Source: a virus
Direction: 5' to 3' (one strand)
Virus genome (UHGV): UHGV-0075672
Length of the DNA stretch: 22,142 nucleotides
A program made the position numbers. Of the stretch, positions 12,001 to 15,000 are shown in pieces; position 1 is the first letter of the stretch, and every line of letters starts with the position of its first letter.

Positions 12001-15000
12001 ATCAGCATGTTCCCCGATAAACCATTGCTTATGAGCAGCCTTTTTTTACCCAAAGAAGCCCAACTGGCACTCACTGGCGAAAAAGCTGAAGAGGCGTACA
12101 ACGATTATATCTCAGCGATCGCCTATGCTCGGGCGGAAGAAGAATGGGAGAGAAAATTCTCCCCCTGTCCTTTCTGATTTTCAGGACCAAAAAATGTTCG
12201 ATATCGTTGAATTTGTTAAGCAGCAGGAGCGCTTTTTCTGCGAGGCATTAACTGAACCGACGCTGACATGGGCGAAGGAAAGTCAGTTTGCAATTCAGCA
12301 ATTCCAGAAAAATGCCTTTCTGGCTGACACAGCACGGGCAAATCTGCCCAGCGCACAGAACGCTATCATCAATGTTGCCGCCATCGGCATAACCCTGAAC
12401 CCGGCCAGCAAGCTGGCGTATCTGGTCCCACGAAAAAAGGCTGTATGCCTGGATATCAGTTATATGGGGCTTCTGCATCTGGCACAGGTCACAGGAGCCA
12501 TTCAGTGGGGGCAATGCAAACTTGTTTACGAGAAGGACATTTACGAGTCCAACGGTATTGACTGCGCCCCCACGCACAAATACAACCCATTCGTAGACAG
12601 GGGCGCACGCATTGGCGGTTATTGTGTCGTAAAAACATCCGAAGGCGACTATCTGACCGAAGAGATGAGCAACAGGGAAATCGAGGTCATCAGGGCGTGC
12701 AGCAAAGCCGGAAATAACGGAGGAAGTAGCCCGTGGGATAGCTTCCCGGATGAAATGGCCCGCAAAGCCATTGTTAAACGCGCCAGCAAATACTGGCCCC
12801 GTCGCGATCGCCTGGATACAGCTATCGACTACCTGAACACTCAGGCCGGTGAAGGTATTATCCTGAATGCTGATCACATCCCTGAGCGCGACGTCACTCC
12901 CGCATCAGATGAGATTATCAATGAGATCACTCAGGCAATCACCGAAATCAACAAGAAATGGGATGACCTTCTCCCCGTATGTTCCAAAACATTCCGTCGC
13001 ACGATTGCATCACATGAAGATCTCACGCAGGAAGAAGCCGTCAAAACGCTGGATTTTGTCAAAAAGAAAGCTGCCAGAAACAAGGCCACGGCGGAAGCGA
13101 AAGTTCACGCCACCACGGAAAATAACAGCGAGGCCGTGTCATGACACCAGAAATTATTCTCCAGCGAACTGGCGTGGATATTACCAGCCTCGACCAGGGC
13201 GATGATGGATGGCACAAGCTGAGACTCGGTGTTATCACTGCTTCAGAAGTTCACAACGTCATAGCCAAACCACGTTCAGGCAGCAAATGGCCTGATACAA
13301 AAATGTCATACTTCCACACCCTGCTGGCTGAAGTTTGTACTGGCGTGGCACCGGAAGTTAACGCTAAGTCGCTCGCATGGGGAAAGCAATACGAAGATGA
13401 TGCCCGTGCCCTCTTCGAATTTATCGCGGATGTTACCGTCGCGGAAACGCCAATAATTTTTCGTGACGAAAGCATGCGCACCGCCTGCTCTCCCGACGGT
13501 TTATGCAGCGACGGTAACGGTCTTGAGCTTAAATGCCCCTTCACTTCCCGCGACTTCATGAAGTTCCGGCTTGGCGGCTTTGACGCTATCAAGCCTGCTT
13601 ACATGGCCCAGGTGCAATTCAGCATGTGGGTTACAGACAAGGACGCCTGGTACTTCGCCAACTACGACCCACGTATGAAGCGTGAAGGCCTGCATTATGT
13701 CGTGGTCGAGCGGGATGAAAAGTACATGGCGAGTTTTGATGAGATGGTGCCGGAGTTCATCGACAAAATGGACGAAGCACTGGCGGAAATTGGTTTTGTA
13801 TTTGGAGAACAATGGGGGGGGTTAATAACTAATGGATGATGTAATTTTTACTTACAATGAAGAATCAGCACTAACCGCCGGACAAGGTGGTTTTATTACC
13901 GAAACGGGTGCGCATATCATTAACATCACCGAAGCAGAACTCAAGCAATCAGAAAAAGGTGCCCGATTCATTGAGTTTTCTGGAGAATCCGACGACGGAC
14001 GGAAAATCCAATATCTCAGTGTTTGTGTTCAGAAGAATGACGGCACTGAAAATAAATTTGGGGCGAGCATTATTCACGCCATGATGGGATGCACAGGAAT
14101 TGGGCAGTTAACGCAACATATGGTTTCCGTCAGTAAATATGTTGCACCTGAGTTTCACGGAAAGAAAATCGGGTTAGTGCTCCAGAAAGTATTAACCACA
14201 AACAGAAAGACTGGCGCAGACAGTTACCAGATGGAAATCCGCATTCCATTCATTGCAGAAACAGGGCAGACACTGAAAGAAAAAGCTGAAGGAAAGAAAC
14301 CAGAAACGGTAGCAAATATGGTTTCCACTCTCAAAGACAAAGACAATCGCAGCAAAAACGCAAACCCGAATCACACGGACGACCCGGGTTACTGGCAGTA
14401 CGGTGGCGATAATTTTTAATTCACAAACAAAACCAGGCTTTAAATGCAGTGAACAACTGAAGCCTTAACACACCTCTACACGGAGATATTAATATGAACC
14501 AGCATCAAACTGATGTTAATGTTTTCATTAACGACCTCGACGGCGGGGTATTTGTTAACAAACTTGGTGCGGTATTAAGTGAAGTTGCCTTTGGCGTAAA
14601 CAGCACAAACAAAAAAGGAAAGGTATGTGTTGAATTCGAATTATCTTCACTTGATGAAAATCGCGTATCAGTTTCCCATAAACTAAAATTCACACGCCCG
14701 ACAATGCGTGGTAGTAAATCAGAAGAAGATACGACTAACACACCAATGTTTGTAAATAAAGGTGGTGAGCTTACTTTGTTCCAGAAAGACCAGGGACAGC
14801 TTTTTGATAAACAGGGCCAACATGACGCTGTTTTACGCTGAATAATCCCCGCCTTAAAACGCTCGCGCATTATCCCTAAATACATAAATTAAAGGTAAAT
14901 ATACATGTCTCAGTTAGATAGCAATGCCATTAAAGAAATTGTAAAACTCACCACTACTGCTTTTTCTGGTGAAAATTTGCCGCTTACGGAATGCCCTGTT

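Follow-up and report, generated by a model that had tools for sequence, protein, structure and literature searches.

A phi80/TL-2011c-type recombination module with a RecT-type annealase core, a Redbeta-type tail and lambda-type Exo in a lambdoid Escherichia coli prophage

In the Red system of phage lambda, the C-terminal domain (CTD) of the annealase Redbeta (Bet) has been solved in complex with the exonuclease Exo (structure 6M9K). Helix E of Exo (T90, L91, F94, T95) enters a CTD pocket formed by L223, I227, F249 and L250, and mutation of Exo L91/F94 or Redbeta L223/F249 destroys the complex (PMC6393309). The same CTD binds the C-terminal peptide of the single-strand DNA binding protein (SSB) at a site that overlaps the Exo site (PMC6393309; structure 8TFU). 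Whether RecT-type annealases use a similar CTD was stated as an open question in a 2023 review (PMC11611040). The annealase of phage phi80 promotes recombination in vivo (PMC3945230). One annealase type was named 'SAP-4' in a 2025 survey of lambdoid Rec modules, which gave the set of phage TL-2011c as 'SAP-4 + Exo + GamL + SSB-2' and listed SAP-4 with Exo (phi80), SSB-2 (TL-2011c), RecE or no nuclease; shuffling of partner-interaction domains was considered likely there but 'beyond the scope' (PMC12315714). Here an annealase and exonuclease gene pair of this kind is described from the virus genome UHGV-0075672, a stretch of 22,142 nucleotides (nt) that is called the window below; unless stated otherwise, coordinates are window positions, and all features lie on the + strand.

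The best explanation of the locus, with a probability of roughly 0.8, is that it is a lambdoid module of the phi80/TL-2011c type with a two-domain annealase, that the Redbeta-type tail of the annealase docks Exo, and that tail and exo are exchanged between annealase cores as a cassette. This reading draws on homology, predicted fold, gene order, co-occurrence, incongruence among relatives and a recent recombinant. The annealase open reading frame (ORF) at 12194-13144 (316 amino acids (aa), ATG at 12194) and the exo ORF at 13141-13839 (232 aa) share an ATGA at 13141-13144, in which the annealase stop and the exo start overlap. This would couple their translation as in lambda bet/exo, which share the identical 4-nt overlap; most related loci also have it (a -3 overlap). 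The gene order in the window is gamL, annealase, exo, an SSB-like gene and a DUF2303/YfdQ gene, and the content gamL - SAP-4 - exo - ssb-2 in the early-left operon matches the phi80/TL-2011c-type Rec module.

The window represents the immunity/early-left region of a lambdoid prophage from E. coli, one of the Shiga toxin (Stx)-converting, Oslovirus-like type. Over 11800-14500 it has 100% nt identity to Escherichia phage PhiR12_3 and ~98% to TL-2011c, P13374 (the O104:H4 outbreak phage type), Lyz12581Vzw and dozens of Stx2a phages. The complete annealase-exo segment was found in 143 of 5426 complete E. coli genomes, where the pair is annotated as a RecT family recombinase followed by a lambda exonuclease family protein. 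The locus is an ordinary example of the recombination modules already catalogued from Shiga-toxin-type lambdoid prophages of E. coli. Its novelty is low, since annotated phages with an identical locus have been deposited and the module type to which it belongs is catalogued too.

The N-terminal part of the annealase (aa 1-203, 12194-12802) is, as judged from sequence models and a predicted fold, an annealing core of the RecT ('SAP-4') type and not of the Bet type. Pfam RecT (PF03837) matches aa 31-204 with 86.9 bits (cut-off 24), but it also matches lambda Bet, so that RecT and Bet had to be told apart by the NCBIfam models, by BLAST and by the predicted fold. With the NCBIfam model TIGR00616 'rect' the protein reaches 65.8 bits, above the cut-off of 52.65. 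No match of TIGR01913 'bet_lambda' to the window annealase was found at E <= 0.01, while lambda Bet itself scores 169.5 bits with this model. Rac RecT is 33% identical to the core over aa 56-202, and the Rac RecT equivalog model NF007351 gave 71.8 bits, below its cut-off of 296. In the AlphaFold2 model of the annealase (mean predicted local distance difference test, pLDDT, 74.8) a core, a disordered linker and three helices are predicted. The best Foldseek match of the predicted core in the PDB is Listeria RecT (LiRecT, 7UB2; E 1.7e-6, 196 columns), and Redbeta N-terminal domain structures were absent from the matches of the model. Binding and annealing of single-stranded DNA (ssDNA) are presumed for the core, the in vivo evidence being that for the phi80 homologue, whose core is 55% identical.

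The core is followed by a flexible linker (aa 204-231, 12803-12886; pLDDT <50) and by a predicted Redbeta-type three-helix CTD (aa 232-300, 12887-13093), where Exo and the SSB tail are presumed to dock. Alignments with core relatives that carry other tails diverge within the linker, after LNTQAGEGI (motif LNtxxGEG; aa ~221, nt ~12857). In BLASTP against lambda Bet only aa 178-300 align, strongly from ~aa 228. A phmmer search of 177,635 PDB sequences returned as significant matches only the Redbeta CTD chains of 8TFU (E 1.3e-18) and 6M9K (E 1.7e-14), over aa 225-299; with matches this strong and this exclusive, the similarity of the tail to Bet lies far beyond chance. Tail helices are predicted at aa 239-251, 256-267 and 279-314, and Foldseek aligned the tail model to 6M9K/8TFU with template modelling (TM) scores of 0.87-0.94, a root-mean-square deviation (rmsd) of 0.6-0.9 A and 51-53% identity. 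The similarity to Bet begins at ~12866-12887 and stops at 13093; the last 16 aa (13094-13141, pLDDT 48-55) form an extension that both lambda and phi80 lack. Very probably this tail serves to dock Exo, and by analogy with lambda it would bind both Exo and SSB.

The exo gene encodes a lambda-type 5'-3' exonuclease (Exo/Redalpha) with ~88% aa and 81.4% nt identity to lambda, the latter rising to 90-95% at the 3' end of the gene; Pfam YqaJ (PF09588) scores 100.3 bits. There are 28 aa differences from lambda Exo. None falls on R28, D109, E129 or K131, which we take to be the catalytic and 5'-phosphate-binding residues. The original prediction, made from the sequence alone, had located both ORFs correctly, and its description of a RecT-family core with a Bet-like C-terminus from about 12880, overlapping a near-lambda exo by ATGA as in lambda, agrees with these results up to the last 16 aa. 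As a side observation, the window Exo has a C-terminal extension of 6 aa (13822-13839; GGLITNG where lambda has a final R), which runs 8 nt into the SSB-like gene; in Lyz12581Vzw and ArgO145 Exo has 229 aa and stops at the next gene's start codon.

The residues that form the lambda interface can be followed into the window proteins. In the tail the pocket would consist of V262 (lambda L223), T266 (I227), F288 (F249) and V289 (L250), and R229 and K253 (lambda numbering) are conserved. The corresponding ridge of Exo has A90, L91, F94 and I95, with Q83, D87, L184 and Y186 as in lambda. Of the two hot spots in the tail, F249 is identical and L223 is conservatively replaced by valine (leucine or isoleucine in close relatives); with L91 and F94 of Exo also kept, the essential hot spots appear to be retained, but the pocket residue I227 is a threonine here. 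The helix E region of Exo (aa 83-98, 13387-13434), which is the CTD-binding ridge in lambda (PMC6393309), is locally divergent. Identity to lambda exo drops to 60-67% nt over 13367-13456, and nine of the 28 Exo differences, including T90A and T95I, lie within the 22 positions of aa 86-107 (P 3e-4, for an interval chosen post hoc). Phi80 Exo varies around helix E too. The clustering near helix E is suggestive only. Each clade of tails and Exos has its own set of residues at the interface positions, though these differences are not phylogenetically independent. The change from isoleucine to threonine in the tail (I227T) and that from threonine to isoleucine in Exo (T95I) could be compensatory.

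The association between tail and nuclease was followed in 113 loci, namely the window, five phage loci and 107 loci from IMG/VR and GTDB genomes that were found with an alignment of five cores. Tails and downstream ORFs were classified in all of them. Where the tail is Bet-like, the next gene encodes a lambda-type Exo in every locus with enough downstream DNA to tell, usually with the 4-nt overlap. The Exo-paired members of the core family span Enterobacterales, Vibrio and Endozoicomonas and all have a Bet-like tail. Where the second type of tail is present (phages 611R6, Dewey and KO-TP1, and many Enterobacterales), it is followed in every locus by a gene for 160 aa of the Sipho_Gp157 family, with the annotation 'Mu Gam-like', and there is no Exo. 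No mismatch was seen among 71 tail-Exo pairs, in which the junction sequence is itself conserved. Bet-like tails (29-33%) and lambda-type Exos (39-42%) go with still more distant cores as well (BUCT618 and Yersinia phage vB_YenM_39; core identity 50-52%).

The two types of tail show no profile similarity (hhalign probability 0.6%). In the model of a Gp157-paired protein the core matches 7UB2 and the tail has no match to 6M9K. The idea that the Gp157-paired tail is a diverged Bet-like CTD was rejected on the hhalign result and on the lack of a Foldseek match to 6M9K/8TFU, with the reservation that similarity between small helical domains is hard to detect. The alternative tail is itself predicted to form three helices (pLDDT 77-89). 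In two of these loci (L008, 3406-3888; L006, 3396-3878; locus coordinates) the gene in the place of exo encodes 160 aa, is annotated 'Mu Gam-like end protection' and matches Pfam Sipho_Gp157 with 144 bits.

Some loci have disturbed gene pairs. In Yersinia phage vB_YenM_39 (L122) a homing endonuclease gene (3913-4401 of that locus) lies between annealase and exo, with the ATGA coupling lost, and a second one follows exo. In two IMG/VR loci (L035, L036) the annealase ORF stops after ~213 aa and exo begins 305 nt downstream; the gene is probably frameshifted or truncated, with loss of the tail.

The tail also occurs outside the RecT family. An exhaustive HMMER search with the tail gave 21 mostly fragmentary representatives, and a separate homologue search with the tail alone gave five fragments. 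One of the HMMER representatives (P0135) has an Erf-family core (PF04404) with a lambda-like CTD and a GamL-like gene upstream on its contig; it has no close relative in the phage collection. A related IMG/VR locus (UViG_3300026487_000228, 2992-4424 of the locus) encodes an Erf-family annealase with a Redbeta-type CTD and an ATGA-overlapping lambda-type Exo. Together with the RecT/SAP-4 and Redbeta cases, the CTD and Exo pair is therefore found on three types of annealase core. Another hit, a protein of 1065 aa without meaningful Pfam domains (P0129), has seven stretches that match aa 24-57 of the tail query (E 2.5e-13, 28% identity) and is probably a repetitive or coiled-coil artefact.

These distributions bear on the strongest alternative, in which the tail is a module that binds host SSB for annealing at the replication fork and its association with exo reflects mere genetic linkage and not docking. 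The Redbeta CTD does bind the SSB C-terminal peptide at a site overlapping that of Exo (8TFU; PMC6393309), RecT-family proteins need the tail of the host SSB (bioRxiv 10.1101/2020.04.14.041095), and the adjacency of tail and exo makes linkage a confounder. However, where there is no Exo, cores of the same enterobacterial hosts manage with an unrelated tail, while the Bet-like tail accompanies Exo on all three core types with 0 mismatches in the 71 pairs. This alternative is therefore considered unlikely, although it is the best of those weighed here.

Comparison of the related loci indicates that the core has a different history from the tail and exo. Identity to the window in core, tail and Exo is 55%, 57% and 82% for phi80 and 55%, 45% and 85% for a second locus (L114). 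In the Rosenbergiella locus (L095) the values are 69%, 51% and 70%. The Morganella/Yersinia-type loci have 72-74% in the core with a tail at 29-36% and an Exo at 51-58%, and Vibrio/Endozoicomonas loci have 63-71%, 21-26% and 41-47%. For lambda the core is not alignable, with the tail at 51% and Exo at ~87%. In tail and Exo the window thus comes closest to phi80 and lambda (51-57% and 82-87%). In the comparisons with the window, tail and Exo identities are strongly correlated (Spearman 0.86, p 4e-5), while core identity tracks neither Exo (-0.03) nor tail (-0.20). A locus from Serratia quinivorans (L110) combines a phi80-like core (73%) with a tail (63%) and Exo (85%) of the type found in two Yersinia loci (L037/L093). 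From these comparisons it appears to be a second independent reassortment.

A recent exchange can be followed at the nucleotide level. An annealase from E. coli (P0008) has the sequence of the Gp157-paired Salmonella protein P0105 as far as '...KRASKYWP' and that of the window protein from 'RRDRLDTAIDYLNTQAGEGI...' onwards, with full identity in both parts. In the E. coli assembly GCA_050515605.1 (locus L119) positions 3501-5517 correspond to window 12194-14223. The 5' end of this segment, in the annealase gene, is 98-100% identical to the P22-like phage 611R6 or to Salmonella P0105; from ~12794 the DNA matches the window at ~100% across exo and on into the SSB gene, until the contig ends (window ~14160) with only the 5' part of that gene present. 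The switch of identity places the crossover at window 12770-12800, at the conserved ...KRASKYWP motif in the core end. P0008 and L119 are, by these comparisons, evidently a recent natural recombinant of the tail and exo cassette. This recombinant and the incongruent relatives argue that tail and exo move as a cassette.

The same evidence was weighed against purely vertical inheritance, by which the Bet-like tail and Exo have belonged to the RecT subfamily from the start and core and tail were never swapped in the ancestry of the locus. A homologous tail is indeed present in all Exo-paired members, long-range divergence is roughly parallel (core 50%, tail 30%, Exo 40%), and core and Exo identities correlate over all pairs of loci (rho 0.52). 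However, the incongruence of the window core with its tail and Exo, the presence of two unrelated types of tail within one core clade and a recent recombinant of exactly the tail and exo cassette all contradict it, and vertical inheritance without exchange is less likely still, at low odds.

The opposite extreme is a one-off recent hybrid, in which a lambda-like bet-exo segment joined a RecT gene at ~12880 and left lambda's own tail and exo in place. The near-lambda Exo (88% aa, 81% nt, 90-95% nt at the 3' end) and the lambda-like ATGA junction would fit this. The tail does not: it has ~51% aa and ~55% nt identity (sliding windows) to lambda, and blastn of the window tail against lambda gave no match. 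Among 277 records of the phage collection, tails were either at least 90% identical to the window (62, all Stx-type phages) or less than 60% identical (215, lambda-type Bet). No tail of 60-90% identity was present among these records, and no lambda-like bet CTD more than 90% identical to the window tail. Phi80 and many genera share the architecture, and tail identity among them goes down to 21-36%. A recent hybrid with lambda is therefore very improbable. The window tail appears on this evidence to be a diverged lineage and not the tail of lambda itself. The mosaic is old, occurs in phi80 already and is how the whole RecT subfamily is normally built.

The original prediction had seen a recombination joint at which the annealase core was swapped while the tail was kept. 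This interpretation holds in part. A domain mosaic with incongruent core and tail-exo segments does exist, and so does a recent recombinant, but the joint of that recombinant lies ~90 nt upstream of the one proposed. A tail retained from a lambda-like bet is not supported, and either the core or the tail with exo may have been the part swapped in. The nucleotide comparison with lambda that had been proposed separates the two parts, with exo at 81.4% and the tail at a level where blastn finds nothing. Nor is the combination confined to this locus: phi80 and every Exo-paired member of the core family share the RecT core, the Bet-like tail and the lambda-type Exo. As to canonical RecT proteins, the result is divided; the tail is absent in Rac RecT, which ends shortly past the core, but it is the rule in the Exo-pairing RecT subfamily.

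That the tail resembles Bet by chance, low complexity or convergence has next to no probability. A short helical domain with many charged residues would fit such an origin, but the PDB sequence match (E 1.3e-18 against 177,635 sequences), the Foldseek match (51-53% identity, rmsd 0.6-0.9 A) and graded intermediates refute it.

Several points weigh against the preferred reading of a phi80/TL-2011c-type module with an Exo-docking, exchangeable tail. The binding and activity of this annealase are deduced from its homologues. Tail and exo are neighbours on the DNA, and linkage alone would make them co-occur and co-diverge to some extent. The correlation of core and Exo identities across all pairs means that reassortment is occasional and not free. 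The window tail diverges from that of lambda (51%) more than the Exo identity (87%) would predict from other pairs, and exo may therefore itself be mosaic. Lastly, the interface is only partly conserved, with I227T, Q226K, Q252K and E256R in the tail and T90A and T95I in Exo.

With a phi80/TL-2011c-type module of this kind, homology suggests the following mechanism. GamL would hold RecBCD off. The RecT-type core would bind and anneal ssDNA, and a disordered linker would join it to the Redbeta-type three-helix CTD. By homology with the solved lambda complex, the CTD would clamp helix E of every subunit of the Exo trimer, so that the annealing core could be loaded on the nascent 3' overhang while Exo resects the double-stranded DNA end. 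Afterwards the CTD would engage the C-terminal tail of host SSB via an overlapping surface, as proposed for lambda. The ATGA overlap would couple translation of annealase and Exo and balance the two proteins. Tail and exo, often with the downstream ssb, would form one cassette that is exchanged where crossovers fall in the linker or in the conserved 3'-terminal part of the core, and in the window a core of the Morganella/Yersinia-like clade would have been joined to a tail and Exo of the lambda/phi80 clade. Physical binding to Exo and SSB, the loading step and co-adaptation of the interface are the parts of this scheme taken over by analogy.

A wider pattern is proposed more tentatively, at a little under even odds. 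A mobile 'docking cassette', made of the Redbeta-type CTD and the lambda-type Exo, may have been grafted repeatedly on at least three different cores (Redbeta, RecT/SAP-4, Erf) via crossovers in the conserved core end. The interface would co-adapt in each lineage (for example tail I227T with Exo T95I), and an unrelated tail would do the equivalent job for partners of the Gp157 family. This pattern was not found spelled out in the literature searched, although earlier work on the phi80 genome or on annealase classification may describe the phi80 chimera.

The other features of the module are as follows. The first gene, gamL (11896-12177), encodes a RecBCD inhibitor of phi80 type (NCBIfam NF033500 phi80_GamL, 149.8 bits, cut-off 40; PHROG 1050 match). 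An AGGA ribosome-binding site was read from the sequence at 12183-12186, 8 nt 5' of the annealase ATG. The last gene that travels with the cassette is the SSB-like gene ('SSB-2', 13832-14419), which matches the single-strand DNA binding protein family PHROG 743 (E 6e-68) and has no Pfam match; it is present in most close relatives with enough downstream DNA. Further upstream, at ~9490-9792, a remnant of only ~100 aa is annotated 'type II restriction enzyme BsuBI', and PhiR12_3 has the same. At this site Lyz12581Vzw has an intact methyltransferase and a BsuBI-type endonuclease, and the copy in ArgO145 is frameshifted.

The locus bears on a question from recombineering, namely whether RecT-type annealases bind their nuclease partner via a Redbeta-like CTD (PMC11611040). 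The natural series of one core with two tails, one tail and Exo with three cores and a fresh recombinant amounts to ready-made domain-swap experiments. It could help to define partner specificity and to engineer annealase/exonuclease pairs, and it indicates where crossovers fall when lambdoid phages reshuffle their recombination modules. If the docking cassette is real, it would offer recombineering a design rule by which any annealase could be coupled to lambda Exo. As a locus the module is ordinary, and the wider pattern (tail and Exo on three cores, the alternative Gp157 tail, the fresh recombinant) is of modest specialist interest.

Among known systems, the Stx-phage modules of TL-2011c, P13374 and Lyz12581Vzw are of the same type, and that of TL-2011c is essentially without difference from the window. 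The Rec module of phi80 (Lula), gamL - rec ('RecT-phi80') - exo, has the same order, GamL, a RecT-type core, a Bet-like CTD and an ATGA-coupled lambda-type Exo; it differs in the presence of an Agt/Mog gene, the absence of SSB-2 and the identities given above (core 55%, tail 57%, Exo 82%), and its tail is 75% identical to lambda's. The Gp157-paired members (phages 611R6, Dewey and KO-TP1; Salmonella P0105) have cores 67-72% identical to the window up to a break after LNxxxEG, but carry an unrelated helical tail and a Sipho_Gp157 ('Mu Gam-like') gene instead of Exo. Lambda Red (Gam - Bet - Exo) shares with the window the 88% identical Exo, a homologous three-helix CTD, the ATGA overlap and the residues F249 (Bet) and L91 and F94 (Exo). 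The window differs from it in the RecT-type N-terminal domain, in GamL instead of Gam, and in a tail at 51% identity with I227T, E256R and the 16-aa extension. Rac RecE/RecT shares with the window a core at the level of TIGR00616 with 33% identity; Rac RecT lacks a Bet-like CTD and pairs with RecE, and the window annealase falls below the NF007351 cut-off.

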